This document shows positions 6,326 to 47,699 of a stretch of DNA of 64,000 nt, in pieces (positions within the stretch are counted from its first letter, which is position 1; every line of letters starts with the position of its first letter). Both the position numbers and the translations under genes were made by a program. The stretch is taken from assembly GCA_034432935.1 (NCBI GenBank), contig DAOUBD010000005.1:1054-65053 (forward strand), given 5' to 3'. This DNA is from Dehalococcoidia bacterium. Lineage in GTDB: Bacteria; Chloroflexota; Dehalococcoidia; SM23-28-2; RBG-16-64-32. A model generated the notes under the pieces. The model searched no databases. It had not been told where the DNA came from and saw only the letters and a list, made by a program, of their open reading frames with translations.

Positions 6326-6326
6326 T

Positions 6327-26098: not shown

Positions 26099-26623
26099 TC
26101 AGGGCGGCGTTGGCGCAGACCGGATGCGGGTGCCCTGCTTCTTGAGGATGCGGGTGCTGAACAGGACATCGTGGGGAAGGCCTTCCAGGCCGGCCTCGCG
26201 GTTGATCTCCTGGACCTTGTGCAGCACCTCCTCCTGGGACATGCCGTGGACCATGGCGAACAAGTTGTAGGGCCAGCCAGGCCGGCGTGGCCGCCGGTAA
26301 CAGTGGGTGATCTCCGTCCGTTGCCCCAACCTCGCTCCAACCTCTGATACCCGCTCGTCGGGCACGTCCCACACGGCCATGCCGTTATACCTGACGCCCA
26401 GGGCATAGTGGTTGGGCACCGCCGCCAGGCGCTTGATGATGCGGCGATCCAGGAGAGAGCGCAGCATCGCCAGGACCTCCCCCTCGCCAGTACCCAGTTG
26501 TTCAGCGATCTCCTTCCAGGGCTCGGGGACCAGGGGTATCCCCTCCTGGACGATAAGGAGGAGCTGTCGCTCCAACGGGCTGATGGCAGCCTCCGTACCC
26601 ACGCCTTCCCCCTGTTCCGTCAT
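26099..26623 (-). CDS. Lrp/AsnC-like siroheme decarboxylase subunit (AhbB/NirDLGH-like)
   Basis: Lrp/AsnC-like N-terminal HTH plus a C-terminal domain with ITHCYRRP...YNLFAMVH. It is tandem with, and overlaps, its paralog. Confidence 0.5.
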   Translation of the reverse strand: MTEQGEGVGTEAAISPLERQLLLIVQEGIPLVPEPWKEIAEQLGTGEGEVLAMLRSLLDRRIIKRLAAVPNHYALGVRYNGMAVWDVPDERVSEVGARLGQRTEITHCYRRPRRPGWPYNLFAMVHGMSQEEVLHKVQEINREAGLEGLPHDVLFSTRILKKQGTRIRSAPTPP

Positions 26624-27130
26624 CCCTGGTGTCCCGTAGCGCCGTTCTCGTCAGCGTCCGGCAGCTCGTAGTAGAACTCGACGCGGTATTCCTCCAGGGT
26701 CGGGAGGTTGAGGACCTCGAGGCCAGTCTCCCTCTCGATCTCGCTGATGACGCGCTGCACCGCCTGTGGGTCTTCCGAGGATACGACGAACCACAGGTTG
26801 TAGTGGTGGGTGCGCTCGTAGTTGTGAGAGATCTCCGGGTGGCGGTTGATGGCGGCGATGACCTCGTCCAGCCGTTCGGGGGGTGCGGCCACGGCGGCCA
26901 GGGTGCGCTCTCCCCCCAACTGGGGCGCGTTGAGGATGGCGCCCAGGCGTGTCAGGCCCCCTTCGTCCAGCAGGCGGCGCAGGCGGCGTATCACATCTTC
27001 CTCGGTCGTCCCGACGGCGCGGGCGGCCTCCAGATACGGGCGCGGCGTGAGGGGTATGCCCCTCTGGAGCAGGTTTATGAGGCGCCGGTCGCTGCTATCC
27101 AGATACACCGCGTCATCGATCCTCTGGCGC
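26620..27130 (-). CDS. Lrp/AsnC-like siroheme decarboxylase subunit (AhbA/NirDLGH-like)
   Basis: Contains ISHNYERTHHYNLWFVV. The longest ORF (to 27219) overlaps the acyl-CoA dehydrogenase stop, so the true start is probably internal with a non-ATG codon. Confidence 0.5.
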
Positions 27131-27136
27131 GTGTTG

Positions 27137-28911
27137 TCATACCGAGGCGGGCAGGGCCTCTGGCGGCAGCGGCTGATAGCGGGTGATGGGGGCGAAGAGG
27201 TCCAGCACGGAACGGTCATCGCTGATGGCCCGCATGGGGCCGCTGCGGGCTGCCAGGAGCCGGTCCCGAATGAAGAAGCGGGCGACGGCGGCCTTGCGGG
27301 CTGAGCCTGTCTTCCGCATCTCCTCCTGGGCGGCTTCCAAGAGGAGCGACGCCTGCGTGAGGTCCGAGAGGAAGGATGTCACGCGCCGGGCGTGGAGCTG
27401 CCGCAGGTCGGCGTCTGCTCTAGCCAGGAAGAGGATCATCTCTTGGGCATCGCGCCGGGCCTGGAGCACAGCGTCCTTGAGTTGGGCCAGCGCCGGGTGC
27501 TCGACGCCTGCGAGCGCCCGGTCTACGCGGTCCAGGAGGGCGTCGTGGGCGTTCTCCTTGGCCATGGAGCGCAGGACGTCCAGGCAGATGATGTTCTCGG
27601 TGCCCTCCCAGATGGTGTGGCATTGGGCGTCCCGCAGTTGGCGGGCCGTGGGCCAGGTCTCGACGTAGCCGTTGCCGCCGAGGATTTCCACGGCCTGGCT
27701 GGCCAGCTCCAGGCCGCCGCGGGCGCCCCGGAACTTGGCCAGGGGCACCAGGATGCGGTAGAGGCGGCGGCCCTTTTCGTCTCCGGTGGCCCCGGCTAGG
27801 GAGGCGGCCTCGAAGACCATGGCGGAGGCGCCCTCCAAGGCCACCACCATCTGAACCAGCGTCTCCTGAACCATCGGCAGCTCATCCAGGCGCCGGCCGA
27901 AGGCCGTGCGGTGGGCCGCGTAGATGGCGGCTTCCAGGAAGGAGCGCCGCATGATGCCCAGCCCCATGGTGGCCACCCCCAGGCGCGACCCGTTCACCAT
28001 GCTCATCATGCGGTTGAGGCCCCGTGCCTCGGAGCCGGCGTCGCGGTTAGGGTTGCTCAGGATGTAGGCCTCTGCATCGATGAAATCGACCTCGGCCGTG
28101 GGCACCGAGCGCGTCCCCAGCTTGTCCTTCAGCCGCTTGATGCGGATGCCGTTGCGGGTGCCGTCGGCGCGCTCCGCGGGCACCAGGAAGAGGGCCAGGC
28201 CCCGCACTCCCGCCTCGGCCCCCTCGGGGCGCGCCAGGGTGGCGATGGCCTTGGCGTCAACGTTGGAGCAGAACCACTTGGACCCGTTGAGCAACCAGCG
28301 GTCGCCGTCCCGGCGGGCCACCGTCTCGCTGGTGCCGAGATCAGAACCGCCGCGGATCTCCGTCATGAACATGGCTCCATCCCAGGAGCCGTCGAAGGTG
28401 GGCGATTGGAGGTGTGGCAGCACCCTCTCCTTGATCTCCGGCGAGCCCCAGCGCGAGACCAGGAGCTCGACGCCGCTAGTCATCCCCGTAGCGCACACCA
28501 TGCCGGTGTCGCATTGACTGAGAAGGTAAGTGAAGGCCGAGCCTAGTACTGTGGGGATGGGCTTGCCCCGGCGCGCCGATAGCCCCTGGGGCCCTTCGTT
28601 CCATATGTCGCGCTTGCTCTCGATGGCGTCAGGGTGGTGAACGATGGTGCAGACCTCGTTGCCCCAGGCGTCGTAGCGCTCCAGGCGCGGCGGGTTGCGG
28701 TCGATCACCTCCGCCCGGCGCGCCAGGGGCCCGCCACAGAGTTCGCCCCAGCGCACCAGCGTCTCCTCGGCCCACTCTCTGTCTTCGGCCCCGATGTACC
28801 GGTCCGCTATGTCCCGCAGGTTGGGGTCGATGAGGTACCAGTTGAGTCCTATGGCGGACTCAAAGCTGCTATAGTCGATGCCCTCGCCGTTGCTCCTAAG
28901 CCTATCCATTG
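27137..28911 (-). CDS. acyl-CoA dehydrogenase family protein (AidB-like, long N-terminal domain)
   Basis: ACAD middle and C-terminal domains (GTSETV..., GGNGYVETWP). The start is taken at MDRLRSNG. Confidence 0.7.
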
Positions 28912-29003: not shown

Positions 29004-30089
29004 CTACTCCGCTCCAAGAAGCTCCACGTCGAAAATGAGCGTAGCGTTCGGAGGGATCGCCGGAGGGCTGCCAGAGGCCCCGTACGCCAGCTCCGGCGGT
29101 ATGATAAGCCGCCGCTTGCCGCCCACCTTCATGGAGGCGACGCCCTCGTCCCAGCCGGCGATCACCTGGCCCCGGCTCAAGAGGAACGAGAGCGGGCTGG
29201 CCCTGTCGATGGAAGAATCGAATTTGGTCTGGCTGCCGGCGAGCCAACCGGTATACTCCACCGTCACCTTCTGTCCTGGCTGCGGGGCGGGCCCCGTGCC
29301 CTCCTGGATATCGATGTACTGGAGGCCGCTAGGGGTGGTAACGGGCGTGCCGCTCACGGGCGGGGGCGACTCTGGCGCTGGCTCACGCACGTCCACCAAC
29401 TGCACATCCATCACCAGTGTGGCGTTGGGGGGGATGGCCGGCGGCGAGCCCTGCTCACCATACCCCAGGCTGGGTGGTATGAGGAGCTTGCGCCGGCCGC
29501 CGACCCTCATAGTGGCCACACCCTCCTCCCAGCCTTTGATGACCTGGCCGCTGCCCAATCGGAAGCCGAAGGGGCGCCCCCGGGCGACGGTGCTGTCGAA
29601 GACATCGCCCCCTTTGACCTTGCCCACGTAATGCACGACCACCACCTGGCCCTCCTGGGGGGCTGGGCCATCGCCCGTCACGACGTCCACGTACTTCAGG
29701 CCGCTGGGAGTCGTGACGGCCCCGGAGAACTCGTCGCTGCCCCGCAGGGCGGCTGCCAGGACCAGGGCGCCGCCTACCGCCGATGCTAGTCCGCCGGCCA
29801 TCAGGAGCCACGGCAGCCAGGATGGGATGCGGGCCCAGCGGGCCGCCCGCCTCTCCCGCGCCTGCGCCAGGGCCAGGGCCCGCGCCTGGTCGTACGCTGC
29901 CCTCCGGCGCGGGTCGTCGAGCGTATCGAAGGCCTCGTTGATCTCGCGCATCATCGCCGGGTCCCTCGGCGCCTTGTCAGGGTCCGGCTGGTATCGCCGG
30001 GCTAGGCGCTCGTAGGCCTGGGCGATCTGCTCACGGGTGGCCTGGGGTCCAACCCCCAGGACGGCGTAGTAGTCCTTGTGGCTCGTCAC
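29004..30089 (-). CDS. membrane protein: N-terminal J-domain, one TM helix, two FKBP-type PPIase domains
   Basis: J-domain DYYAVLGV...[12 protein letters not shown], a TM helix [25 protein letters not shown], and two FKBP12-like domains ([21 protein letters not shown]...; [21 protein letters not shown]...IFDVELL). Confidence 0.75.
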
Positions 30090-30976
30090 GGCGATGGGCT
30101 GGCTGGAGGCTGCGAGGGAGCACTGGCCGTTGGTACCGGTGTGGCCTTCCTGAAGATATCGACTAATTCGACGTCAAAGATCAACGTGGCGTTGGGCGGT
30201 ATCTTGGGCGGCGAGCCGGTAACCCCGTAGCCTAGCTCGGGCGGGATGATGAGGCGGCGCTTGCCACCCTTCTGCATCGTCGCTAGGCCCTCGTCCCAGC
30301 CCTTGATTACGCTTCCGGTTCCCAGGACGAAGCTGAAGGGGGCGGCGCGCTCCACCGAGCTATCGAACTTCGTGCCGTCGGACTGGAGCCAACCCGTGTA
30401 GTTGACCACGACGGTGTCGCCCGGCGATGGCGGGTCGCCCGTGCCGGGCTGGATATCGATGTACTGGAGGCCAGAGGGGGTGGTGACGGCTTCGCCCGTG
30501 ACCTCTGGCGGGTTGGCCGGCGCCACTCCCGGCGTCTGGGCCGGCAGCGTCGGCGTGGGGCTGGCCGGGGCGACGCTGGCGCTGACCGTGGGCTGGCTGA
30601 CGGCGTTCTGGCCGCCGCCACCGCCGGTGAGGGATGCCACTATGACGGCGATGATGATGAGGACGGCTATGCCGAGGCCGATGCCGCCCAAGAACTCGGG
30701 CCGCGCTAGGAAGTCGGAGAACGCCGACTCCTGCGCCTCGACGGCGGCGCCCGGTTTGCGGCGGGAGCGGCGCCGGTCGTACTCTGCCCGGCGTTTCGGG
30801 TCCTTGAGGACGGCGTAGGCTGCCTGAAGCTCCTCCCAGCGCTGCCGCGCCTTGGGTTTGCGGCTCGTGGCGGGATCGTAAAGGCGCGCCAGCCGCTCGT
30901 ACGCCCGCTCGATCTCCGCCTGGCTGGCCGAGCGGCTCACTTGCAGCACGGAGTAATAGTCTCGCTGTTTCTCCAC
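30086..30976 (-). CDS. membrane protein: N-terminal J-domain, one TM helix, Pro/Thr/Ala-rich linker, one FKBP-type PPIase domain
   Basis: J-domain DYYSVLQV...[13 protein letters not shown] helix [20 protein letters not shown], and an FKBP domain [19 protein letters not shown]...GWDEGLATM...[12 protein letters not shown]. Its start overlaps the upstream paralog's stop. Confidence 0.75.
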
Positions 30977-31097: not shown

Positions 31098-32702
31098 ATG
31101 CACCCTATAGCCGTGCCTGCCGCCGATCTGCCAGCCGTGGTCCGGGCGCTCTTGCGCCCTGATGCCTACCTCCACCCGGTGCAGCGCGTGGAGCTCCGCC
31201 AGACTCACATCTCTTTCGTCCTTTTGGCTGGGGAGTACGCCTATAAGGTGAAGAAGGCGGTGAACTTCGGCTTCCTGGACTACTCCACCCTTGCCAAACG
31301 CCGTTTCTACTGCCAGCAGGAGGTATCGCTGAACTCCCGCCTTTGCTCGGGGACCTACCTGGGCGTCGTGGCCGTACGGGAGGAGGCTGGGCGTGTGAGG
31401 ATGGGCGGTTCCGGCAGAACGATAGAGTACGCCGTACAGATGCGGCGCCTTCCGGCCGAGCGCATGATGGACCGTCTGTTGGCCGAAGGCAAGGTGACGG
31501 AAGAGATGGTCCGCAATCTGGCCCGCGTGCTTGCTGATTTCCACGGCCGGGCCGAGACGAACGCCCGAATAGCGGCCACCGGCCTGAAGGGGATCCGCTA
31601 CGCTTGGGAAGAGAACTTCCGCCAGTGGCAGCCCTTCATCGGCCAGACGATCTCGCCGGAGCAGGACGCCGCCCTGCGGGCGTTTGGCCGGCGCTTCTTC
31701 GCGCGCAAGGGGGCCTTCCTGGCGGCCCGCGCGGACGGCGGCCGGGTGCGCGATTGCCACGGGGACCTGCGCTCCGACAGCGTCTGCTTCGTGGACGGCC
31801 TCTGCATCTACGATTGCATAGAGTTCAACCGCCGCTTTCGCTACACGGACGTGGCGGGCGACGTCGGCTTTCTGGCTATGGATCTGGACTACCGGGGCCA
31901 CCCAGAGCTGGCCAGGGCGTTCGTAGATGAATACGTGCGAACCTCGGGCGATGCCGGGCTCCTGGAGGTAATCGATTTCTTCAAGTGTTACCGGGCGGCG
32001 GTCCGCGGCAAGGTGGAGGGCTTCCTTCTGGCGCAGGCGGAGGTGCCGGCCGCGGAGAAGCGCCGCGCCCGGGCTGCGGCCAAGCGCTATTTCGATCTGG
32101 CCTGCCAGTACGCGCGGGCTCACGCTCCTCCCCTCTTGCTCATCACCTGCGGCCTCTCTGCCACCGGCAAGTCCACGCTGGCCCGGGCCCTGGGCCAGAA
32201 GATCGGCGCAGAGGTGATCTCGTCCGACGTCGTACGCAAGCGCTTGGCCGGCCTGGAGCCAACGCAGAGGCGGGAGGAGCCCTTCGGCCGCGGAATCTAC
32301 GGCCCGGAGTTCACGGAGCGCACCTACGCTGCCCTGCTGGATGCCGCGCGGCGCGCCCTGGACGCTGGCCGGCCGGCCATTCTCGACGCCACGTACCTGC
32401 GGCGGACGCACCGGCGCCAGGCGCGGCGGCTGGCGGAGGAGCTGGGCGCTGAGTTCGCCTGCGTCTACCTGCGGGCGGAGGATGCCCTGGTCCGGCGCCG
32501 CATCGAGAAGCGGCTTCGGGAGGGGGCGGACCCTTCGGATGCGGGCTGGAGCGTCTACGTGCGGCAGAAGCGGCGCTTCCAGAGGCCGAGCGAGGTGCCA
32601 GCGGAGCGTCTCATCACGGTGGACGCTGCCCGTCCTGTGGCCGCGCAGGTGCGGGCTGTGCTGGACGCTTTGCGCAGGCTGTCGCCCCACTCGTTGCCCT
32701 AG
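31098..32702 (+). CDS. bifunctional aminoglycoside-phosphotransferase-like kinase / P-loop ATP-binding (AAA_33-like) protein
   Basis: N-terminal half has the APH-like Brenner motif HGDLRSDSV plus DCIEF. C-terminal half has Walker A GLSATGKST and a zeta-toxin/PNK-like fold. Confidence 0.65.
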   Translation: MHPIAVPAADLPAVVRALLRPDAYLHPVQRVELRQTHISFVLLAGEYAYKVKKAVNFGFLDYSTLAKRRFYCQQEVSLNSRLCSGTYLGVVAVREEAGRVRMGGSGRTIEYAVQMRRLPAERMMDRLLAEGKVTEEMVRNLARVLADFHGRAETNARIAATGLKGIRYAWEENFRQWQPFIGQTISPEQDAALRAFGRRFFARKGAFLAARADGGRVRDCHGDLRSDSVCFVDGLCIYDCIEFNRRFRYTDVAGDVGFLAMDLDYRGHPELARAFVDEYVRTSGDAGLLEVIDFFKCYRAAVRGKVEGFLLAQAEVPAAEKRRARAAAKRYFDLACQYARAHAPPLLLITCGLSATGKSTLARALGQKIGAEVISSDVVRKRLAGLEPTQRREEPFGRGIYGPEFTERTYAALLDAARRALDAGRPAILDATYLRRTHRRQARRLAEELGAEFACVYLRAEDALVRRRIEKRLREGADPSDAGWSVYVRQKRRFQRPSEVPAERLITVDAARPVAAQVRAVLDALRRLSPHSLP

Positions 32703-32770: not shown

Positions 32771-32798
32771 TTGACGTGCTGCGGGCACGATGTAAGAT
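32771..32798 (+). promoter_or_regulatory. sigma70-like promoter TTGACG-16 nt-TAAGAT upstream of the GYD gene
   Basis: Read from the sequence. A strong SD (AAAGGAGG) sits 6 nt before the ATG at 32875. Confidence 0.4.
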
Positions 32799-32874
32799 GG
32801 TGCGAGAAGGCTGGAGCGCCGGCCGGCGGAGGGGGAGTGACTGCCGTCCGGCCTAGGCCCAAAGGAGGTAGCCC

Positions 32875-33174
32875 ATGGCCACGTACATCATGCTCAGCAC
32901 CCTGACCGACGAGGGGCGCAAGACGCTGAAGGAGCGCCCAGAGCGCCTCCAGGAGGTAAACCGGGAGATCGAGGCCATGGGGGCCCGCGTAGTGCAGCAG
33001 TACGCCGTCCTGGGCGGCTACGACTTCGTGAACATCATCGAGGCGCCGGACAACGAAACCATCGCCCGCGTCTCGGTGGAGCTGGGCGCCCGGGGCACCG
33101 TGCAGTTGACGACCCTGGCGGCGATCCCCGTCGACACCTTCACCCAGATGCTCAAGGGGCACGCATCGGCCTGA
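32875..33174 (+). CDS. GYD domain-containing protein
   Basis: 99 aa with the GYDF motif (LGGYDFVNIIEAPDNET). Confidence 0.7.
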   Translation: MATYIMLSTLTDEGRKTLKERPERLQEVNREIEAMGARVVQQYAVLGGYDFVNIIEAPDNETIARVSVELGARGTVQLTTLAAIPVDTFTQMLKGHASA

Positions 33175-33182
33175 GGCGCGCC

Positions 33183-34196
33183 GTGGCGGGTTACATCGTC
33201 TTCACGAGGCTGACGCCGGCCGGCCAGAAATCCCTTCGCAACAACCCCAACCGTCTGGCCGAGGTGGCGGCCCAGGTGCGCAGCCTGGGGGTCAAGATCA
33301 CTAGGCAGTACGCCACCCTGGGAGACTACGACTTCATCACCTTCATAGAGGCGCCGGACAACGTGACGGTGGCCAAGGCGGCGGCCGAGATCAGCGCGCT
33401 GGGTACTATGCGCCTGGAGGTCTTCCCCGTCCTGTCCATGGACAGATTCGCCCACCTGCTGCGCCTTCAGCCCTATCGAACGGAGCCCCACCGCTGGCAG
33501 ACGGCCCTTTGGGCGCGGGCCATTCGCCGCGTGTTCCGCTACGTGGCCGCCACCCAGTACGTGCGCCGCTTCTGCCGTCCGCTGACCGTAGAGGGGCGGG
33601 AGAACCTGGAGGGCCTGAAGGGCCCCGCCGTCATCATCGCCAATCACAGCTCGCATCTGGACACTCCCGTGGTGCTCAGCGCGCTGCCAGGACGTATCAG
33701 CAGCCGTCTGGCCATCGCTGCGGCGGCCGATAAGTTCTACGCCTCGCGCCGCAAGTTGGCGTGGCGCTACTCCCTCTTCCTCAACACCTTCCCGGTGCAC
33801 CGCGGCGGCGGGGTCAAGCAGTTGGAGTACCCGCTGTCGCTCTTGGAGCGGGGCTGGTCCATCCTTATCTTTCCTGAGGGTGGCCGGTCCAAGACGGGGC
33901 AGATCGGCCGCTTCAAGGCGGGGCCGGCCATCATGGCCATGGAGGCTGGGGTGCCGGTGGTCCCCATCTACATGGAAGGTTTGCGGGAGATCCTCCCCAA
34001 GGGCTCGCGGCAGCCGCGGCCGGGGCCGGCGGTGGCCCGGATAGGCAGGCCCGTCTCCCTTGCTGGAGCGGCCTCCGTGGCCGAGGCCACGGTCTTGCTG
34101 GAGAACGCCATGCGCTCCCTGGCGGGCTTGCCCCCACGGCAGGCGGCGTCCCCGGCGGCCCAGCCGGGCGGCCTGGGGCAACCTACGGCTGGCTGA
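33183..34196 (+). CDS. fusion protein: N-terminal GYD domain + lysophospholipid (1-acyl-sn-glycerol-3-phosphate) acyltransferase PlsC-like domain
   Basis: Residues 1-95 are paralogous to the upstream GYD protein (LGDYDFITFIEAPDNVT). The C-terminal part has the acyltransferase HX4D motif NHSSHLDTPV and FPEGGRS. Confidence 0.7.
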   Translation: MAGYIVFTRLTPAGQKSLRNNPNRLAEVAAQVRSLGVKITRQYATLGDYDFITFIEAPDNVTVAKAAAEISALGTMRLEVFPVLSMDRFAHLLRLQPYRTEPHRWQTALWARAIRRVFRYVAATQYVRRFCRPLTVEGRENLEGLKGPAVIIANHSSHLDTPVVLSALPGRISSRLAIAAAADKFYASRRKLAWRYSLFLNTFPVHRGGGVKQLEYPLSLLERGWSILIFPEGGRSKTGQIGRFKAGPAIMAMEAGVPVVPIYMEGLREILPKGSRQPRPGPAVARIGRPVSLAGAASVAEATVLLENAMRSLAGLPPRQAASPAAQPGGLGQPTAG

Positions 34197-34899
34197 CGGC
34201 GGCCTGGACCTTGGCCGCCAAGGCGTCCAGGCTCAGGCCTTCGACGGCGCTCGCGAAGGGATTCTGCGGCAGGGCAGACACCTTCCCGCCGTCGCCAATC
34301 CGGTAGTGTCCGGTCCAGGGCTGCGCTTCGTAGGTCCCGGTGACGGCGCCGGCCTTGAGGAAGAGGAGGGCGCGGTCGCCCGGGAGGAGGAGGGGGTCAG
34401 CGTCCGCCACGGCGAGAACGGCGCTGGTCCAGTCGAGATATGGTTGGGGGCCGCCGCCCTGGCGCAAGGTTATGGTAGCGGGAGGGGCGCCTTTGAGGAC
34501 CTGCTGGACTGAGATGGTGACGGAAGCCTGCCACTGGGGCTCGAAGGACACCCCCTGGGCGGTGCCCACCACGATAGCGTCAGCAGCCTGCGCGGCCTCG
34601 GCCAGGGTCGGGTAGGGCGGCGGGTAGTCCGCGCTGAGGGGGACCCTGGGCAGGGAGCTGAGGCCGGCGTCCGGAGAGTTGAACTGGGCCAGCCACTGGG
34701 AGAGCCTGGACTCGAACTCCTTCTGGGAGCTCGCGATGAGGGTCTGGCACTCGGCGCTGGAGAGGCCCTGGCAGGGGTCTTGGGCCTTCGGCTCGCCGCT
34801 CTGGCCGCCAGAGGCGATGGCGTAGACCCCAGCCGCCAGGGCCAGGCCGGCCAGCACGCTGACTATGGCCCCTGCCGTTCGGAGACGCGTAAGCCTCAT
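34183..34899 (-). CDS. secreted/membrane-anchored hypothetical protein
   Basis: Signal peptide or anchor MRLTRLRTAGAIVSVLAGLALAAGVYA. No recognisable domain. Confidence 0.4.
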   Translation of the reverse strand: MRLTRLRTAGAIVSVLAGLALAAGVYAIASGGQSGEPKAQDPCQGLSSAECQTLIASSQKEFESRLSQWLAQFNSPDAGLSSLPRVPLSADYPPPYPTLAEAAQAADAIVVGTAQGVSFEPQWQASVTISVQQVLKGAPPATITLRQGGGPQPYLDWTSAVLAVADADPLLLPGDRALLFLKAGAVTGTYEAQPWTGHYRIGDGGKVSALPQNPFASAVEGLSLDALAAKVQAAVSQP

Positions 34900-35038
34900 G
34901 ATGCCTGCCTCCTTCAGTAAGGCCAGCGGTAGATACAGCGGATGCCCCAGAATAGTGTAGCTGAGCTTGGGCAATCCCAGACGCCTATGTCCACGGCCTG
35001 AGGCCCAACTCGGGGCGGGGTTGTTACTGCCCAGTACA

Positions 35039-35572
35039 TCAGCGCCGTTGGGTTGTCATGGTGGGCGAGACCAAGAGCGTGGCCGTACTCGCGCGCAAAC
35101 AGCCATTGCTGTTGGTCGAAGTAAAGCGGAAAATCCCCCTGTCGATATCTATGTTAGAGTACCATATGTTGATCGCGACCATGTAGCTGAAGCAGACTCC
35201 GGCCGTGTTGCAGTTACTGGTTATGGCCCACCCCGGCGTGGAGGCTTGATCCCTGACGTAAACCCAGGTGTCGTTGGTCTGCGGGGCCCAGTGCAGCATT
35301 TGCGGGCCGTCCGCGTCATTCCGCGCCCACATCGCATTATTGAACGCATCCCACCACCACGCGCGTTGGTCCGAGAACTCGTCGATCAGCCGGACAGGCA
35401 ACCATTGGTCCAGAACCCAGTTACTCCGGCAGAGCCTCGGGGTGCCTGCCTTCCAGCACGTGCCGTAACCCATCGCGTGCCCCGCCTCAGCCGGGCCTGG
35501 GCTGAATACCAATAACCATATTAAGGCGCTTGCTGTCGAAACTGCGCCGTGCCACGCGAGAACCCGCCGCAT
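35039..35572 (-). CDS. small secreted Trp/Cys-rich hypothetical protein
   Basis: Signal peptide ending ...PAEA, with 10 Trp and 7 Cys in the remaining ~150 aa. It lies in a local low-GC stretch. Confidence 0.4.
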   Translation of the reverse strand: MRRVLAWHGAVSTASALIWLLVFSPGPAEAGHAMGYGTCWKAGTPRLCRSNWVLDQWLPVRLIDEFSDQRAWWWDAFNNAMWARNDADGPQMLHWAPQTNDTWVYVRDQASTPGWAITSNCNTAGVCFSYMVAINIWYSNIDIDRGIFRFTSTNSNGCLRASTATLLVSPTMTTQRR

Positions 35573-35709: not shown

Positions 35710-36903
35710 CTAGCTGCGCCGGGCCGCTCGCCCGGGCCGCTGGGGGGATGGCGCAGGGGCCAGTGCGATGATCTCGCTGGCGCTGCCCTCCGCTAGCTGG
35801 CCCAGGCCGCGCCTCTCGGCTATCACCCTCTGCCCTTCCTCCAGCAAAGCGCTGAGGAACTCCGCCTCCGGCACGACCCTCACCACTTGCCCCTTGCGGA
35901 AGATGGCGCCCCGGCCCTTCCCGGCCGCCAGCCCGACATCGGCATCCCTCGATTCGCCCGGCCCGTTGACGACGCAGCCCATGACGGCCACGGTGATGGG
36001 TTCGCCCAGGGCCTGGAAGTGCGCCTCCACCTGTTTGGCCAGGGGGATCAGGTCCACTTCGATGCGGCCGCAAGTGGGGCAGGCCACGATGGTGGGGCCG
36101 CGCTGGCGCAGGTTGAGCGACTTCAGGATCTCCCAGCAGACGGGCAGCTCCTCGACGGGGTCCGCCGCCAGCGACACGCGGATGGTATCGCCGATGCCCT
36201 CCGCCAGGAGGATGCCGATGCCTACAGCCGAACGCACGCTGCCGGCGCCGGGCGTCCCGGCTTCGGTGACGCCCAGGTGCAGGGGATACGGCACCCGGCG
36301 GGCGATCTCCCGGTAGGCGGCGACCATGGTGGGGACATCGAAGGCCTTAAGGGAGACCTTGATGTCCTCGAAGCCCATCTCCTCCAATATGCCGATCTCC
36401 CAGAGGGCGGCGTCCACCATCCGCCGGGCCTTGCTGGGAGGCATCTCGCCCTCGGCCAGGGGCGGCAAGGGCGGCAGAGAGCCCTCGTTGACGCCCACCC
36501 GGATGGGGATGCCCCGCTCCTTGGCCGCCCTCACCACCTGCCGCACCTTCCCAGGATCCCGGATGTTGCCCGGGTTCAGCCTCAGGCCGTGGACGCCGGC
36601 TTGGATGGAGGCCAGGGCCAGGCGATGGTCGAAGTGGATGTCCGCTATGATGGGCACCGGAGTCCGGCGCACGATCTCCGGCAGCGCCTCCGCCGCTTGG
36701 CGGTCCGGCACGGCCACCCGCACGATCTCGGCGCCAGCGTCTGCCAGGCGGGCGATCTGCTCGACGGTGGCCTTGGCGTCGGCGGTATCGGTGTTGGTCA
36801 TCGTTTGCACCACGATGGGTGCGCCGCCTCCCACCTGTACGCCGCCCACGAAGACGGGCCGTGAGGGCCTGCGGGGCGCCAGGGGCGTGGTTCCCTCCGT
36901 CAT
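35710..36903 (-). CDS. ispG: 4-hydroxy-3-methylbut-2-en-1-yl diphosphate synthase (flavodoxin)
   Basis: VQSMTNTDT and CPTCGR motifs. The true start is MTEGTTP at 36903 (ATGA overlap with the rseP stop), and the in-frame upstream ORF extension is spurious. Confidence 0.9.
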   Translation of the reverse strand: MTEGTTPLAPRRPSRPVFVGGVQVGGGAPIVVQTMTNTDTADAKATVEQIARLADAGAEIVRVAVPDRQAAEALPEIVRRTPVPIIADIHFDHRLALASIQAGVHGLRLNPGNIRDPGKVRQVVRAAKERGIPIRVGVNEGSLPPLPPLAEGEMPPSKARRMVDAALWEIGILEEMGFEDIKVSLKAFDVPTMVAAYREIARRVPYPLHLGVTEAGTPGAGSVRSAVGIGILLAEGIGDTIRVSLAADPVEELPVCWEILKSLNLRQRGPTIVACPTCGRIEVDLIPLAKQVEAHFQALGEPITVAVMGCVVNGPGESRDADVGLAAGKGRGAIFRKGQVVRVVPEAEFLSALLEEGQRVIAERRGLGQLAEGSASEIIALAPAPSPQRPGRAARRS

Positions 36904-37992
36904 TCGAATAGGCTCCGGCCGCTGATGATGCGGATGATATCGAAGTAGGTGACGACAACGGCCATGGTGATGATGATAGCCAGGCCGATGAGGTGGACGA
37001 TGGCCTCCTTCTCTGGCGCGATGCGCTTGCCGCCCCGGGCGATCTCTATGAGCACGAAGGCGATTCGCCCGCCGTCCAGCATGGGCAGCGGGAGGATGTT
37101 GATGATGGCCAGGTTGATGGAGAGGAGGGCTGCGAAGTCCAGCAAGGTCTGCCAGCCTGACTCCTGAACCACCTCGCCGGTGGCCTGGGCGATGCCGACG
37201 GGGCCGGCTACATCCGGCCCAGAACCGCCGTGGAACATGGCCACGATCTGGTTTCGAGCCAGGATCAGGGAGTCCCAGGTGGCTGTCCACCCCTTGGGCA
37301 GGGCCTTCCAGAGCGGGTAGCTCTCAGTATCGTGGAACTGGGGGTACTTGTTGGCGATGATAATCCCCGTGGGGCCCTGCCCCGAAGGCGGCGCCCAGCG
37401 GGCTTTGACCGGGACCTCCAGGACCTGCGTCTGTCCGCCGCTGCCCAGGACCTGGCGTTTCACGGTGAATTTGACGGTCTCCCCCATGTTCAGGCGGATA
37501 AGGCGCCCCACCTCTTGCGTGTTCTTCACGGACTCCCCGTTCAGGGCCAGGATGGTGTCTCCGGGTTGCAGGCCGGCCTCCGCCGCCGGCGAACCCTGGG
37601 CCACGGCCTCGATGACAGCCGGTCCCACGGGCACCTGACGCGGGATCATGAAGGCGATGGCGAAAAGGATCACCGGCAGGATGAAGTTCATGCCGGACCC
37701 CGCGCCCAAGACGATGAGACGCTTCCAGGCCGCCTGGGCCGCCAGGCTCTGAGGGTCGGACGGGTCTTCTTCCCCCAGGAGCCTCACGAAGCCGCCCAGG
37801 GGCAGCCAGTTGATGGAGTAGAGGGTGCCTTTCCAGTTGAAGCCCCAGATGCGAGGCGGATACCCGAGCCCCGCTTCCAGCACCTTCACCTTGAACAGCT
37901 TGGCGGTGATGTAATGGCCCAGCTCGTGGAAGACGATGAGGCCCACCAGCATGGCCAGGAAGGGCAAGACGGAGTAAATCACACCCGCCATA
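36900..37992 (-). CDS. rseP: RIP metalloprotease RseP (site-2 protease, M50)
   Basis: HELGHYITAKLF zinc motif, a PDZ domain and the LDGGR motif. The start is taken at MAGVIYSVLPF. Confidence 0.8.
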
Positions 37993-37998
37993 GCGGCC

Positions 37999-39147
37999 TC
38001 ACGCCTTTGCTCGCACCCAGTCCTCGGCCCACTCCCTGGCCCAGGCATCGGCCGCCAGCACCTGGTCCAGCGATGGGTTCGGGGTGCTGCGATGGTTGCT
38101 GAGGGCGTCATCGATGAGGTGGGCTATATCCGGGAAGGGGATGTGTCCTGCCAGGAAGTGCTGCACCGCCACCTCATCGGCGGCCGCCAGGACCGCCGGG
38201 TAGGTGCCCCCCTGGCGGCCGGCCTCCAGGGCCAGGCGCAGGCAGGGGAAGCGTTTGGTGTCTGGCATGCCGAAGTTCAGGGTTCCTATCATCTCCAATT
38301 CGAGCCGTGGCACCGCCGCCCCCGGCAGCCTCTCCGGATAGGTCAGCGCGCACTGAATAGGTAGACGCATATCCGGCACCCCCAGTTGCGCCTTCACGGA
38401 GCCGTCGCGGAACTCCACCAACGAGTGGACGATGCTCTCCCGGTGGAGGAGGACGTCGATGCGCTCCAGGGGGACATCGAAGAGCCAGCGGGCCTCGATG
38501 CACTCCAGGCCCTTGTTCAAGAGGGTGGCGCTGTCCACGGTGATCTTTCGGCCCATCTGCCAGTTGGGGTGGCGCAGCGCCTCTTCCGCCGTGACCCTGG
38601 CCAGCTCTTCCGGACGCAGGTCCCGGAAGGGCCCGCCCGAGGCCGTGAGGACGATGCGCTCGACGCAGGCCGGGTCTTCACCCCAGAGGCACTGCCAGAT
38701 GGCTGAATGCTCGGAATCGATGGGCCTGATCTCGGCCTTGGCCCTCCGCGCCTCGGCGGTGACGATGTGGCCCGCCACCACCAGCACCTCTTTGTTAGCT
38801 ATGGCCACGTTCTTCCCCGCCCGCACGGCGGCCAGCGTTGGGCCGATCCCGGCGGCCCCCGCAGTGGCCACCACGACGATGTCCACCGAGGGGTGCGTCG
38901 CCATCTCTTCCATCTCCGCCCAGCGGGATGGCAGGTGGCCAGCCGCCGCCCTCTGCCGAAGGTACTGTCCCTCCCGGCTGGCGTACACGAAGGCCGGACG
39001 GAACTCGCGGGCCTGCTCTTCGAGGAGGGTGACGTTGTCGCCCGCCGCCAGGGCCACCACCCGGAACCGATCGGGCAGCGAACGCACCACGTCCAGCGTC
39101 TGGCGGCCGATGGAACCCGTGGAGCCCAGGATGGCCAGGCCCGTCAT
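37999..39147 (-). CDS. dxr: 1-deoxy-D-xylulose 5-phosphate reductoisomerase
   Basis: ILGSTGSIG NADPH motif within a Dxr architecture. Confidence 0.9.
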   Translation of the reverse strand: MTGLAILGSTGSIGRQTLDVVRSLPDRFRVVALAAGDNVTLLEEQAREFRPAFVYASREGQYLRQRAAAGHLPSRWAEMEEMATHPSVDIVVVATAGAAGIGPTLAAVRAGKNVAIANKEVLVVAGHIVTAEARRAKAEIRPIDSEHSAIWQCLWGEDPACVERIVLTASGGPFRDLRPEELARVTAEEALRHPNWQMGRKITVDSATLLNKGLECIEARWLFDVPLERIDVLLHRESIVHSLVEFRDGSVKAQLGVPDMRLPIQCALTYPERLPGAAVPRLELEMIGTLNFGMPDTKRFPCLRLALEAGRQGGTYPAVLAAADEVAVQHFLAGHIPFPDIAHLIDDALSNHRSTPNPSLDQVLAADAWAREWAEDWVRAKA

Positions 39148-39253
39148 CGGCGCGGGCTCCAAGGGCCAAGGCGCGGCCTGGCGAGGCAAGCCCTTTGCTT
39201 TCCTTGTGCGGGGGAGAGCCGCTTTGGGGAAGGCCAGCGGATGAGCACGGGCG

Positions 39254-40096
39254 CTAGCGGACGGCCCATATCACAAAATAGTATACCAAAGGGGCCGTGA
39301 AGAGGACGGCATCGATGCGGTCCAGGAAGCCGCCGTGTCCAGGGATGAGGTCGCTGGTGTCTTTTACGCCGGCGCCGCGCTTTATGAGGGACTCCGCCAG
39401 GTCTCCCAGGACGGCCGTAATGGGCAGCAGAATGCCCAGAGGGACGATGTGCCGCCAGGCGGCATCCAGGCCGGTAACCTGGTTGAGGGCGATGACGGAG
39501 GCGAAGCCGCCGATGAGGCCGGCGGCGGTTCCCTCCAGCGTCTTGCCGGGGCTGATGGCCGGCGCGATGCGCACGCGGCCCACGGCCCTCCCCACCAGAT
39601 AAGCTGCCGTATCGGCCCCGAAGGTGCTGAACACCGCCAGTAGGGCCCAGCGCCCATCGTCATCCAAAGCCCGCAGGAAGACCAGGTGCGACCCCAAGTA
39701 GCCGACGTAGGCCAGGCCGCTGACCGCCCACAGCCAGTCGCGGAGTCCGGTGAGGGGCTGCGCCTGGGCGACTTGGTAGAGGAAGATCAGCCCCACGGCG
39801 GCGGCGAAGGCCCCGGCCCATTCGTCGGCGCCCCGATCAGCGGCCACGGCGAGGCCCAGCACGGCGCCGGCGCCCAGTAGCGCCGGGGCGCGCTGGCGAT
39901 ACAAAGGGGGGGCGGGCCGCTGCATGCCGGGCGACGTGAGGGGCCGGGAAACGGGGTCGGTCACGGCGTAGAACTCGAGCACGGCCAACACCAGGATGAC
40001 AGCGACGGCAGCGGTATAGAGGGCGCCCCCAAGGAGGATCAGGGCCACGATGATGGGCACGCCCAGGACCGTTGTCAGAAGCCGCTGGGCGAGCAT
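39254..40096 (-). CDS. cdsA: phosphatidate cytidylyltransferase
   Basis: C-terminal signature KRGAGVKDTSDLIPGHGGFLDRID. Confidence 0.8.
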   Translation of the reverse strand: MLAQRLLTTVLGVPIIVALILLGGALYTAAVAVILVLAVLEFYAVTDPVSRPLTSPGMQRPAPPLYRQRAPALLGAGAVLGLAVAADRGADEWAGAFAAAVGLIFLYQVAQAQPLTGLRDWLWAVSGLAYVGYLGSHLVFLRALDDDGRWALLAVFSTFGADTAAYLVGRAVGRVRIAPAISPGKTLEGTAAGLIGGFASVIALNQVTGLDAAWRHIVPLGILLPITAVLGDLAESLIKRGAGVKDTSDLIPGHGGFLDRIDAVLFTAPLVYYFVIWAVR

Positions 40097-40102
40097 GCGG
40101 GG

Positions 40103-40948
40103 CTAGCCCGCACGGCCGTGGAGGCCGTTAGAGGGCGCTCGGCGGCTGCCGTTCTGGCGGCCGTCTGGGTCGCATGGCGGCCCGTCCACCTCGCCCGGCA
40201 AGAGGCCGCCGAACCTCCGGGCCCGCCGGCTGTAGGCCAAGAGGGCCTCGTCAACGTCCGGGATGTCGAAGTCCGGCCAGTACACAGGCGTGAAGTAGAA
40301 CTCCGCGTAAGCTCCCTGCCACAGGAGGAAGTTGGAGATGCGCATTTCGCCGGCGGTGCGGATAACCAGGTCCGGGTCCGGCAGGCCAGCGGTGGAGAGG
40401 TACGAGGCCACCAACGCCTCGTCGATCCGTTCGGCCGGGACGCCATCGCGGACGATACGGCGCACCGCCTCGACTATCTCAGCGCGGCCACCGTAGTTCC
40501 AGGCCAGAGCCAGGGTCATGCGCTGGTTGTCCTTGGTCAGCTCGATGGCCTCTCGCACCTGCTGCTGGAGCTTCGGCTTCAGGGGCGAGAGGTCGCCCAG
40601 GTGGACGAGACGTATCCCCTCGCGGTGCAGGTTCTCCAGCTCGCGCCTGAGAAATAACGAGAGGAGGCGCATTAAGCCCCGGACCTCATAGTCGGGGCGC
40701 TCCCAGTTCTCGGTGGAGAAGGCGTAGAGGGTCAGGCAGGGGATGCCGTAGTCGGCGAAGCGCTGGATGACCCGGCGGATGTTCTCCGTGCCGGCCCGGT
40801 GGCCGAAGAGGCGGGGCCGGCCCCGGGCACGCGCCCAGCGTCCGTTGCCGTCCATGATGATGGCGACGTGGTCTGGTATCGGCGATATCGGAAGGGGCGG
40901 GGCATGGGATGCCCTTCGCTTCCGGCTAAAGGAGATTGCTGTGGCCAT
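40103..40948 (-). CDS. uppS: isoprenyl transferase (undecaprenyl diphosphate synthase)
   Basis: Contains HVAIIMDGNGRWA, FSTENWERP and LLWQGAYAE. Confidence 0.9.
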   Translation of the reverse strand: MATAISFSRKRRASHAPPLPISPIPDHVAIIMDGNGRWARARGRPRLFGHRAGTENIRRVIQRFADYGIPCLTLYAFSTENWERPDYEVRGLMRLLSLFLRRELENLHREGIRLVHLGDLSPLKPKLQQQVREAIELTKDNQRMTLALAWNYGGRAEIVEAVRRIVRDGVPAERIDEALVASYLSTAGLPDPDLVIRTAGEMRISNFLLWQGAYAEFYFTPVYWPDFDIPDVDEALLAYSRRARRFGGLLPGEVDGPPCDPDGRQNGSRRAPSNGLHGRAG

Positions 40949-40999
40949 CTTTGTTCACAAGTATAACGTTGCAGGCGGGGCATGGGTGGCGCGCCGCGT

Positions 41000-41557
41000 T
41001 TAGACTGTAAGGAGTTCCTTCTCCTTCTCCTCGCCGATCTTATCGATCTCCTTGATCTGCTCGTCCGTCAGCTTCTGGAGCTCGGCCTCTGCGCGATGGA
41101 GCTCGTCTTGGGAGATCTCGTGATCATGTTCCAGGCGGCGCAGGTGCTCGTGCACATCCCGGCGGATGTTGCGCACCGCCACCCGTGCTTCCTCCACCCG
41201 TTTGCGCACGTGGCGCACCAGCTCCCGCCGCCTTTCCTCCGTAAGGGGCGGGATGGACAGACGTATCACGGTGCCGTCGTTGTTGGGGGTTAGCCCCAGG
41301 TCCGACTTGAGGATGGCCTTCTCGATGGCCCCGATGCTGGTGCGGTCGTAGGGCTGGATGACTAGCAGGCGGGCGTCGGGGGCGGTGATAGTGGCCAGTT
41401 GGTTGAGGGGGGTGGGCGTCCCATAGTAGTCCACCCGCAGGTGCTCGACGATGCCAGGGCTGGCCCGGCCCGTGCGGACAGCGGCCAGCTCGTGGACTAG
41501 GGCCTCGACGGCCTTATGCATGCGGGCCTTGGCCTCGCTAAGCTGCTGCTGTTCCAT
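41000..41557 (-). CDS. frr: ribosome recycling factor
   Basis: 185 aa with a typical RRF sequence ([20 protein letters not shown]). Confidence 0.9.
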
Positions 41558-41573
41558 GGCTTCTGCTCCTGCC

Positions 41574-42341
41574 TCAGCGGCTGCGGCGGGCTACCGGCGC
41601 CTCCTCCAGCACGGTCTCCAGGTCGCCCACCCTGGTGCCGGCATGGGCCCCCGCAGCGACCCGCTCGATGGAGTGAGGTATGCGGAGGTCGAACACCACC
41701 ACCGGCAAGTGGTTCTCCATACACAGGGAGAGGGCGGTGGAGTCCATGACGGCCACCCGGCGGTTGAGGGCGTCTAGGTACGACAGGGTGCGGAACTTGC
41801 GGGCGCTGGGGTCCTTGAAGGGGTCGTTCTCGTAGACGCCATCGACGTTCTTCTTGGCCATAAGCAGGACATCGGCGTCGATCTCGATGGCCCTCAGGGC
41901 GGCTGCTGTGTCCGTCGTCATGTACGGATTGCCGGTTCCGGCGGCAAAGATGACCACCCGGCCCTTCTCCAGGTGGCGGATGGCCCGTCGGCGGATGTAG
42001 GGCTCGGCCAGGGCTGTGACAGTGATGGCCGACTGGGTTCGCACGGTGATGCCGTGGCGCTCGAGCGCGTCCTGGAGGGCGAGGGCGTTGATGATTGTGG
42101 CCAGCATGCCGGCGTAGTCCCCTGTAGCCCGGTCCATCCCGGCCGCCGAGGCTGTGGCGCCCCGGAAGATGTTGCCGCCACCCACCACGATGGCCACCTG
42201 GGTGCCCTGCTCCTGGACCTTCTTTATCTGTTGGGCGATGTTGTCCAGGGTGGCCGGGTCGATACCGTAGGGTAGGTCCCCCTGTAGCGCCTCGCCACTG
42301 AGCTTGAGGAGGATCCGTTTGTAGGGAGGATCAGCGCTCAT
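41574..42341 (-). CDS. pyrH: UMP kinase
   Basis: Contains [10 protein letters not shown] and [10 protein letters not shown]. Confidence 0.9.
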
Positions 42342-42359
42342 GCCGGCCTCACCGGAACC

Positions 42360-42863: not shown

Positions 42864-42881
42864 GATACAAAGCTCCAGGAA

Positions 42882-43715: not shown

Positions 43716-43939
43716 AGATATCGGTGCAGGCAAATAGAGTCTCCCTTCGCAGTGTCCAACCGCGTAGTATATCAGGAGCGCCCTCGTGGCCACAAGGCGG
43801 CCAGCGTGGCGCCGGCGCTCTGCCCGACCCGGCCTGGCGCCGCCGCCTGCGCCTTGCGGCTCTATCTTAGCCTCTGCTATATTTGAGGCGAGGGCTGCCC
43901 GCACGGGCGGTCTTTATTACACCCAGGTGCAGGAGGTCG

Positions 43940-47632: not shown

Positions 47633-47699
47633 AGCTCACCCCCTAGGACGAGAAAGCCCCAGCCCGAGGGCTGGGGCGCCTGCTCGCTTCCATCTCCGC

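Follow-up and report, generated by a model that had tools for sequence, protein, structure and literature searches.

A stand-alone GYD-domain gene and the gene directly behind it, in which a second GYD domain is fused to a PlsC/AGPAT-family acyltransferase, form a real two-gene unit that is conserved in two bacterial phyla. Both genes are present in the 64,000-nucleotide stretch of a Dehalococcoidia contig analysed here (the window), and a literature search found no published description of such a pair. Two features are the most informative, namely that the free GYD domain is extremely conserved relative to the fused one and that carrier-domain fusions exist as a sister architecture. We assign a probability of about one half to the reading that the pair encodes a lysophosphatidate-type acyltransferase of two subunits, whose GYD domains would form a heterodimeric head acting as a regulator or adaptor, the two genes then being a single bicistronic unit for one glycerolipid-acylating enzyme.

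The first gene (positions 32,875 to 33,174, ATG start) encodes a 99-amino-acid GYD protein, here called GYD1, and the second (33,183 to 34,196, GTG start) a fusion protein of 337 amino acids; both lie on the forward strand, as do the other parts of the unit. Open reading frames and Pfam matches bear out the original prediction of these two genes, with both a GYD domain at the N-terminus of the fusion and an acyltransferase domain (PF01553) scoring above cut-off, and the sigma-70 promoter-like site and Shine-Dalgarno sequence that it had placed before the pair were recovered as well. Eight bases (33,175 to 33,182) separate the TGA stop codon of GYD1 from the GTG, the second start falling 9 nt after the stop. 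At this gene junction (33,173 to 33,182), a GAGG overlaps the TGA and stands 6 nt 5' of the GTG, and translation of the two genes is likely coupled through it. The intergenic gap is short in all loci (about 5 to 80 nt).

Upstream of GYD1, the sequence TTGACG-16 nt-TAAGAT (32,771 to 32,798) resembles a sigma-70 promoter and is the only promoter-like site between positions 32,500 and 34,500, where shuffling gave an expectation of 0.1. The loci L005 and L001, in which the fusion is 97% and 82% identical, respectively, retain the form TTGAC[GC]-16-TAAGAT between diverging flanks; with such spacing, it is limited to the window, L005, and L001/L002 and is absent from more distant loci. A sigma-70 promoter common to all loci was rejected, as the other loci carry TTGACA-N8-TAC[GA]AT, the spacing of which is unfit for sigma-70, and their conserved upstream stretch reads TTGACAC…GTAC[GA]AT. 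The Shine-Dalgarno sequence AAAGGAGGT (32,861 to 32,869) lies 5 nt 5' of the GYD1 ATG. Its AGGAGG core is invariant across 8 aligned upstream regions, and 23 of 37 loci have [AG]GGAGG no more than 20 nt from the start codon. No Rfam match that would point to an RNA element in the 5' leader was obtained anywhere in the window, and no terminator-like site was found near the pair.

The acyltransferase (AT) part of the fusion spans amino acids 133 to 320 (33,579 to 34,142) and was assigned to the PlsC/AGPAT family by its Pfam and 5kym matches and by four motifs. Residues 134 to 264 match the Pfam Acyltransferase model with E 2.4e-23 and 82.9 bits (cut-off 23). The intact HX4D motif I (NHSSHLD, amino acids 154 to 160, 33,642 to 33,662) and motif III (FPEGGRS, 230 to 236, 33,870 to 33,890) that had been claimed for this protein can be read directly from the sequence, together with motif II (FPVHRGGG, 203 to 210) and motif IV (VPVVPI, 257 to 262). 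All four are kept in a 25-sequence alignment, in which H155, D160, R207, P231, E232, G233, and R235 are invariant, whereas the Pro/Ala/Gly-rich C-terminal tail (34,143 to 34,196, stop codon included) is poorly conserved and varies in length. Among PDB sequences, the fusion matched Thermotoga maritima PlsC (5kym, E 2e-15), and Foldseek aligned the predicted structure of a three-domain homologue, discussed below, to the same entry (E 4e-11, 214 columns, TM (target) 0.64).

The likeness to T. maritima PlsC covers PF01553, HX4D, an arginine-containing motif II, FPEG[GT]RS, VPV[VI]P, the predicted fold, and an N-terminal helix that would bind at the membrane interface, with no transmembrane segment. 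However, the two proteins are only 26% identical, and the fusion differs in its N-terminal GYD domain, its obligately linked free GYD partner, its invariant junction motif, and its one long basic helix where the T. maritima enzyme has a two-helix motif. The canonical PlsC models were not reached (TIGR00530, 58.5 against a cut-off of 102.95; PRK15018, 21.5 against 501), and the acyl acceptor is uncertain because the fusion scores below the curated TIGR00530 cut-off. No AMP-binding domain was matched by Pfam in the 337-amino-acid protein, and the Aas-type models PRK08633, PRK06814, and PRK08043 scored far under their cut-offs and covered the AT part only. Most likely, the catalytic part would use an acyl thioester to acylate lysophosphatidate or another lysophospholipid related to it.

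Between the GYD and catalytic domains lies a basic amphipathic helix (amino acids 104 to 131, 33,492 to 33,575) with a hydrophobic moment of 0.65 and a net charge of +8 (amino acids 103 to 132); a long helix is also predicted at the equivalent site in the homologue model. The fusion has no hydrophobic window of transmembrane grade, its maximum Kyte-Doolittle value being 1.28. By analogy with T. maritima PlsC, this helix is probably an interfacial anchor that would hold the enzyme at the membrane surface. It overlaps the junction motif QPYRTEPHRWQT (amino acids 96 to 107, 33,468 to 33,503), which is invariant from P97 to T107 except for R104 in the 25 aligned sequences and forms the best-conserved stretch of the fusion protein; in the AF2 model of the homologue, pLDDT is low at the corresponding positions. 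The core P-H-x-W-Q of this motif recurs in gammaproteobacterial fusions and in paralogues that lack GYD; its PYRTE part is confined to fusions from Chloroflexota.

GYD1 matches the Pfam GYD family (PF08734) over profile positions 1 to 90 of 91 with E 3.7e-32 and 110.6 bits (cut-off 31.4). The same profile positions are matched by the GYD domain of the fusion, GYD2 (amino acids 1 to 94, 33,183 to 33,464), with E 8.9e-23 and 80.6 bits over residues 4 to 92. The two are clear paralogues, as originally predicted, but the identity of about 50% given there was too high: BLASTP aligns GYD1 to the fusion N-terminus with 39 of 94 residues identical (41%), 66% positives, and E 2e-28. The G-Y-D motif lies in the b2-b3 hairpin, as GGYDF in GYD1 and GDYDF in GYD2, and G47 and D50 are invariant in both paralogue sets. 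A ferredoxin-like b-a-a-b-b-a-b fold with a C-terminal helix is predicted for GYD1, and the GYD model (pLDDT 89) has a b-a-b-b-a-b fold, which might pair sheet to sheet as in the dimeric alpha/beta barrel superfamily; the ACT and RAM ligand-sensing domains are its fold neighbours.

The relation of GYD to ACT and RAM is one of resemblance and not of family membership. GYD1 scores 18.5 bits against AsnC_trans_reg, under the cut-off of 25, and scores over homologues range from 21.0 to 29.0 bits, straddling that cut-off with no single stretch that passes. GYD is a separate Pfam family from the ACT/RAM (Lrp/AsnC) domains, which include a separate ACT subunit in the small subunit of acetohydroxyacid synthase, and the arrangement proposed here differs from theirs in that a free and a tethered copy would form a heterodimer. 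The GYD family counts thousands of members, and the paper library searched yielded only two incidental mentions of it. Under the preferred reading, GYD2 would pair with GYD1 into an ACT/RAM-type head, a dimeric alpha/beta barrel, and this head would make the acyltransferase responsive to a small-molecule signal or a conserved partner, the latter recognised through the invariant helical face of GYD1.

The closest relatives of the AT module that lack GYD are 43% to 50% identical to it over query amino acids ~96 to 315, basic helix included, and combine AMP-binding, PP-binding, and Acyltransferase domains (~820 to 895 amino acids) or PP-binding and Acyltransferase domains (~320 to 330 amino acids); at least one cluster of these carrier-domain acyltransferases is from Chloroflexota. 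They share with the fusion the pre-catalytic helix, CRPxxVEGREHL, ANHSSHLDTP, and AAAAD[KY]FY. In these uncharacterised, metagenomic proteins, which have no GYD partner gene, an acyl-carrier domain takes the place of GYD, either alone or accompanied by an adenylation domain. The carrier domain takes the very position of GYD2, directly before the conserved P/W-rich helix, which indicates that this AT clade accepts different N-terminal heads. In function, the carrier-fused proteins recall Aas (acyl-ACP synthetase / 2-acyl-GPE acyltransferase); the Escherichia coli Aas has the reversed domain order and is not known to have a carrier domain in cis.

This sister architecture raises the alternative that the GYD1:GYD2 head is not a sensor and replaces the acyl carrier, recruiting acyl-ACP or acyl-CoA, binding the fatty chain, or docking a partner enzyme. 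Such a role would parallel the handing over of the acyl group in cis by the carrier domain, often with an adenylation domain, and the invariant charged helices of GYD1 resemble a protein-protein interface. However, GYD has neither a phosphopantetheine site nor a known acyl-binding feature, its fold neighbours are sensor domains and not lipid carriers, and GYD-less paralogues with the same helix exist, which argues that the AT can work without any head. We regard a carrier-like or docking head as unlikely.

Searching the databases for GYD-PlsC fusions returned hundreds of homologues with this architecture. Every complete Dehalococcoidia locus that was examined (about 28 species) has GYD1 ahead of the fusion, and so do divergent lineages and Gammaproteobacteria. 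A scan of genome contigs had suggested a distribution limited to Chloroflexota, and this was rejected as an artefact of the search patterns (AAAADKFY and QPYRTEPH), as a large gammaproteobacterial clade exists. Further, a single chain of 417 to 432 amino acids joins GYD1-like, GYD2-like, and AT regions in the same order in some relatives, and no separate GYD gene was found upstream of these three-domain proteins. As Rosetta-stone evidence, the single-chain form argues that the free and tethered GYD domains associate. In the AF2 model of one such homologue (P0100; pLDDT 86.5, pTM 0.59), ~210 to 230 residues superpose with TM ~0.5 on tandem two-ferredoxin-domain barrels, including coproheme decarboxylase, chlorite dismutase, and 2pgc (E 5e-07 to 4e-05 among the matches listed). 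With a pTM of only 0.59 and a TM of ~0.5, the model is suggestive, and no more, of GYD1:GYD2 packing.

The three domains are under uneven constraint. Mean pairwise identity among Dehalococcoidia species is 89.5% for GYD1, 56% for GYD2, and 76% for the AT, and between Chloroflexota and Gammaproteobacteria the corresponding ranges are 68% to 74%, 27% to 29%, and 38% to 41%; GYD1 evolves at about one third of the rate of GYD2 and the AT. Divergence at third codon positions is about even, which places the constraint at the level of the protein. Helices a1/a1' are 98% to 99% invariant in GYD1 and are the least conserved part of GYD2. The far better conservation of GYD1 hints at additional GYD1 partners and is unlike that of a simple obligate heterodimer. 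GYD1 also has the highest GC3 in the window, suggesting that it is highly expressed.

The slow evolution and top GC3 of GYD1, as well as the abundance of stand-alone GYD proteins (4796 matches), would also fit GYD1 as an independent small protein, e.g. a PII-like hub, that is merely co-transcribed, with GYD2 only homodimerising the acyltransferase; the Thermus thermophilus GYD protein TTHA1554 is reportedly a binding partner of glutamine synthetase and cystathionine beta-lyase. However, GYD1 stands immediately 5' of the fusion in every complete locus of both phyla, although the flanking genes are rearranged and vary by lineage, and one clade has GYD1 covalently fused in the same order, leaving an independent GYD1 distinctly improbable. 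An artefactual origin, by a sequencing or assembly frameshift that merged two separate genes (a second GYD and a plsC), was an a priori possibility only and is refuted: frameshifts do occur in long-read MAG loci (L031, L037, L038, and L040) but break the gene instead of creating the fusion, and because both domains share one open reading frame in all 120 best homologues, from independent projects, and in 117 of 120 of the gammaproteobacterial type, with the junction the most conserved part, the fusion is genuine and a check of read coverage is unnecessary.

In Gammaproteobacteria, the pair often adjoins genes for wax-ester/triacylglycerol synthase (WS/DGAT), PHA synthase, and HAD phosphatase. 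Genes flanking it in L047, L045, L040, and the P0390 contig encode WS/DGAT, PhaC, phasin, PhaR, alpha/beta hydrolases, and HAD phosphatase. A Kennedy-pathway TAG cluster composed of WS/DGAT, AGPAT, and HAD has been described (PMC10351704). TAG clusters of Actinomycetota and Proteobacteria (PMC10351704; Rhodococcus jostii atf9-plsB-plsC-like) likewise place a PF01553 acyltransferase beside WS/DGAT and HAD, but there the HAD is fused to the AGPAT, whereas in the GYD-AT loci the HAD is a separate neighbour and the fused domain is GYD. The occurrence of the same module among storage-lipid genes suggests that its pathway is probably the supply of phosphatidate for neutral or storage lipids, or lipid remodelling, and not that of a housekeeping PlsC. 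Neither homologues of WS/DGAT, PhaC, and HAD nor TAG-cluster genes of this type occur within the whole window, and for this genome we infer the storage-lipid link from distant relatives only.

Near-identical L005 excepted, only the pair itself is common to the window neighbourhood and other loci. In most other Dehalococcoidia, the pair is flanked by HD-GYP, desaturase-like, VWA, and AAA_5 genes. None of these occurs anywhere in the window, and the synteny among the other loci may reflect only the relatedness of those genomes. An apparently recurring APH-type kinase neighbour (31,098 to 32,702 in the window, and in L042 and L048) was rejected, as the three proteins have no detectable homology (blastp E ≥ 0.05); the N-terminal 340 amino acids of the protein at 31,098 to 32,702 have no Pfam match. 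The gene context of the GYD-less paralogues (L034 to L036) was uninformative.

The ACT/RAM-like fold, the single-chain GYD-GYD-AT proteins, and the proteobacterial storage-lipid clusters agree with the regulatory or lipid-related role first proposed for this fusion. In this organism, we infer the physical GYD1:GYD2 heterodimer, allosteric control, the substrate, and the pathway. More tentatively, GYD domains might be an unrecognised class of signal-sensing or adaptor domains, in which GYD1, as a PII-like hub, would dock on a tethered GYD receiver and switch carbon into phosphatidate or storage lipids according to nutritional state.

The pair is the first clear link of the uncharacterised GYD domain to lipid metabolism, and its strict pairing, single-chain form, and proteobacterial storage-lipid neighbourhood provide a concrete hypothesis for GYD function. 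Dedicated regulatory domains are known from very few bacterial enzymes of the PlsC family. An AGPAT under the control of a ligand or partner, if true, would be a new control point in membrane or neutral-lipid synthesis, and a PII-like hub, if true, would mean that bacterial lipid synthesis is controlled post-translationally in a new way. Such control would be relevant to uncultured soil and groundwater Dehalococcoidia and to the engineering of triacylglycerol or wax-ester production in Gammaproteobacteria.

Two adjacent genes on the forward strand encode a stand-alone GYD-domain protein (GYD1; 32875-33174, 99 aa, ATG start; Pfam GYD PF08734, E 3.7e-32) and a 337-aa protein (33183-34196, GTG start) in which a second GYD domain (GYD2; aa 4-92, E 8.9e-23) is joined to a PlsC-family acyltransferase (PF01553, aa 134-264, E 2.4e-23). 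Positions and the domain composition of the fusion are as in the original prediction, and the two GYD domains are indeed paralogous (E 2e-28), but at 41% identity over 94 residues rather than the ~50% it proposed. The catalytic motifs NHSSHLD and FPEGGRS were correctly described as intact, and FPVHRGGG and VPVVPI are present as well. A gap of 8 bases, read from the sequence, separates the genes, with a GAGG overlapping the TGA stop of GYD1. Ahead of GYD1 are the predicted promoter and strong Shine-Dalgarno sequence reported earlier; the promoter-like TTGACG-16-TAAGAT (32771-32798, forward strand) has no second occurrence within 2 kb, where 0.1 would be expected, and is kept in the two closest relatives despite diverging flanks. 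An Rfam scan of the whole window returned no RNA family. The best-supported reading of the pair is a two-subunit acyltransferase of the PlsC/AGPAT type.

The acyltransferase part matches Thermotoga maritima PlsC in sequence and scores under the curated cut-offs of canonical PlsC models. It lacks transmembrane segments. Ahead of the catalytic domain, aa 104-131 form an amphipathic, basic helix (moment 0.65, net charge +8) that probably anchors the protein at the membrane interface, by analogy with the anchor helix described for PlsC. In an exhaustive search covering 1.84 billion representatives, the nearest relatives without GYD share 43-50% identity over aa ~96-315, helix included, and have three architectures: AMP-binding, PP-binding, and acyltransferase domains (about 820-895 aa; for example P0252, P0255, and P0266, about 840-880 aa), PP-binding plus acyltransferase (about 320-330 aa; for example P0267, P0285, and P0291), and acyltransferase only (230-260 aa). 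The sister clade consists of metagenomic proteins with an acyl-carrier (PP-binding) domain, often together with an AMP-binding adenylation domain, giving a self-loading A-T-AT arrangement; our literature search found no paper describing it. The acyl-carrier domain of these sister proteins sits exactly where GYD2 sits in the fusion, and the weightiest alternative to the best-supported reading is that the GYD head serves as a docking device for a donor or partner in place of the carrier domain. Some metagenome-assembled genomes (MAGs) hold GYD-less acyltransferase paralogues beside the fusion. Within the junction motif, the core P-H-x-W-Q ... W-A-K/R is part of the acyltransferase module, and the PYRTE part is confined to Chloroflexota fusions.

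Support for a two-subunit enzyme comes from relatives of 417-432 aa in which two GYD domains and the acyltransferase form a single chain. Their first domain is clearly GYD1-like and their second GYD2-like, in the order of the separate genes, and their upstream regions lack a separate GYD gene. These single-chain proteins are a classical Rosetta-stone sign that GYD1 and the fusion physically associate. An AlphaFold2 model of one such homologue (P0100; pLDDT 86.5, pTM 0.59) has T. maritima PlsC as its best match in the PDB (E 4e-11, 214 columns), followed by coproheme decarboxylase, chlorite dismutase, and 2pgc over about 210-230 residues (TM about 0.5). The latter three consist of two ferredoxin-like domains packed as a barrel, and the matches fit a pseudo-dimeric GYD-GYD barrel, although the modeled packing is suggestive only. 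Sequence and profile searches detected no solved GYD structure. Weak Pfam matches to the Lrp/AsnC ligand-binding (RAM) domain recur across the GYD family, with homologues scoring 21.0-29.0 bits on either side of the cut-off and GYD1 of the window below it; GYD therefore resembles small-molecule-sensing regulatory domains but is not a member of those families. The window also contains tandem NirDL/AhbAB-like siroheme decarboxylase genes (26099-26623 and 26620-27219, reverse strand; NirdL-like HTH plus AsnC_trans_reg2), one of which is weakly cross-matched by the GYD HMM (E 4e-04), illustrating the relationship between the GYD and RAM folds. In the best-supported reading, the tethered GYD2 and the free GYD1 would pair into a head resembling ACT or RAM domains, which could regulate the acyltransferase or link it to a partner.

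Conservation of the free GYD1 greatly exceeds that of the fused GYD2 and of the enzyme, both within Dehalococcoidia and between phyla. Mean pairwise identity across 25 species is 89.5% for GYD1 (minimum 83%), 56% for GYD2, 70% for the linker, and 76% for the acyltransferase; between the window and gammaproteobacterial loci, GYD1 retains 68-74%, GYD2 27-29%, and the acyltransferase 38-41%. Since third-codon-position divergence is about equal in all parts of the module (0.54-0.62) and the first and second positions of GYD1 are nearly fixed, codon comparison indicates that the constraint acts on the protein. The N-terminal helices a1/a1' of GYD1 (TDEGRKTLKERPERLQEVNREIEAMG) are 98-99% invariant, while in GYD2 conservation is lowest in the equivalent helices. 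As these helices would face outward in a sheet-to-sheet dimer, a conserved face of GYD1 is probably turned toward the acyltransferase domain, a ligand, or some other partner. At 0.95, the GC3 of GYD1 exceeds that of every other ORF among the 58 picked in the window (0.81-0.90). The alternative second in weight takes GYD1 as an independent hub protein that is merely co-transcribed, with GYD2 as a homodimerization module.

That the fusion is an artefact is refuted: the 120 best matches to the fusion protein all have both domains, stem from independent metagenome projects, and include many named Dehalococcoidia or Chloroflexota MAGs, and the junction QPYRTEPHRWQT is among the most conserved stretches of a 25-sequence alignment, which excludes an assembly frameshift. 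The GYD-PlsC architecture recurs in hundreds of homologues in the databases. A species scan with one genome per species gave 35 loci, whose ORFs were searched with HMMs built from that alignment; in each of the about 28 complete Dehalococcoidia loci, GYD1 (~96-99 aa) precedes GYD2-linker-acyltransferase. Broken copies occur in a few long-read MAGs. Frameshifts split the GYD genes or the fusion in L031, L037, and L038, all 'MFD' Chloroflexia MAGs, and in the metagenome contig L040, where the GYD1 call falls into two pieces and the fusion runs on into garbage sequence. Homopolymer errors, not pseudogenes, are the most likely cause.

The Chloroflexota-only range suggested by the species scan was rejected, its search patterns being clade-specific. 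A search with P0247, a divergent member 38% identical to the window protein, gave 2537 matches; among the best-scoring 120, 117 have both domains, and almost all of those named by organism belong to Pseudomonadales or Gammaproteobacteria. Contigs of 1.6-5.2 Mb carry some of the matches. In the gammaproteobacterial-type loci, too, the fusion is directly preceded by a free GYD gene, and several of these loci lie in a carbon-storage island. The order at L047 is alpha/beta hydrolase, PhaR, hydrolase, wax-ester/triacylglycerol synthase (WS/DGAT), phasin, PhaC, alcohol dehydrogenase, GYD1, GYD-acyltransferase, hydrolase, and HAD phosphatase; L045, L040, and the P0390 contig have related, rearranged arrangements, and the HAD phosphatase is common to L040, L044, and L045. 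An arrangement of WS/DGAT, AGPAT, and HAD genes has been described as a Kennedy-pathway triacylglycerol cluster (PMC10351704). For the proteobacterial lineages at least, the pair probably supplies phosphatidate for storage lipid. In one gammaproteobacterial lineage (L048/L049), an APH-family phosphotransferase gene (10023-11075, forward strand) overlaps the end of the fusion gene on the same strand, making a three-gene operon probable; Band_7/NfeD and a hydrolase-HAD pair come next.

Most Dehalococcoidia loci have a tandem HD-GYP protein upstream of the pair and desaturase-like, VWA, and AAA_5 genes downstream. At 24 of 37 related loci (L006, L008, L011-L024, L027, L030-L032, L038, and L041-L043), GYD1 is closely preceded, on the same strand, by the gene for a ~450-aa protein containing two HD_5 domains (HD-GYP-type), with the FA_desaturase_2-like, VWA, and AAA_5 genes downstream on the opposite strand; these flanks may be a matter of shared synteny and not of function. 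L016 and L022 share the motif TTGACA-N8-TAC[GA]AT, about 20-60 nt ahead of GYD1 and within a conserved stretch, TTGACAC…GTAC[GA]AT; its spacing misfits sigma-70, and it may represent an operator or another kind of promoter. The window contains no homologue of the HD-GYP, desaturase-like, VWA, or AAA_5 genes, nor of WS/DGAT, PhaC, or HAD. Here a kinase-like gene borders the pair on one side and the ispG-rseP-dxr-cdsA-uppS-frr-pyrH-tsf-rpsB cluster lies on the other, and the pair behaves as a self-contained unit moving between contexts. The kinase-like gene (31098-32702, forward strand; 534 aa), directly upstream and common only to the near-identical locus L005, encodes a kinase-type P-loop domain, AAA_33, toward the C-terminus (aa 347-497); the first ~340 aa have no Pfam match and include an HGDLRSD motif reminiscent of APH/protein-kinase catalytic loops. 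Two reverse-strand hypothetical proteins (34183-34974, 263 aa; 35039-35572, 177 aa), which begin with hydrophobic, signal-like segments and match neither Pfam nor NCBIfam, separate the pair from ispG and thereby from the classical conserved cluster (35710-43904, reverse strand), in which ispG, rseP, and dxr were identified from translations. The phospholipid gene cdsA (39254-40096) lies ~5 kb from the pair, a proximity not kept in other loci. Housekeeping genes include gpsA (glycerol-3-phosphate dehydrogenase; 10211-11197, reverse), sufBCDS (4862-9735, forward), and nadC-nadB-nadA (44826-48974, reverse); the 64-kb window showed neither plsX nor plsY, nor a further PF01553 gene. Two adjacent reverse-strand genes (29004-30089, from Pfam; 30086-30976, from its translation) each encode a DnaJ (J) domain at the N-terminus that is connected, via an apparent hydrophobic segment and Pro-rich linker, to one or more FKBP-type peptidyl-prolyl isomerase domains, an unusual combination that is here tandemly duplicated.

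From the observed architecture, conservation, fold resemblance, and gene associations, we infer for the window organism a GYD1:GYD2 heterodimer and its allosteric action, together with the substrate and pathway in this genome. Our literature search on GYD returned incidental mentions only, and the pair is a first concrete functional handle on this widespread domain of unknown function. The GYD-acyltransferase does not constitute a new class of enzyme; it points to what may be a novel means of controlling lipid synthesis in bacteria.
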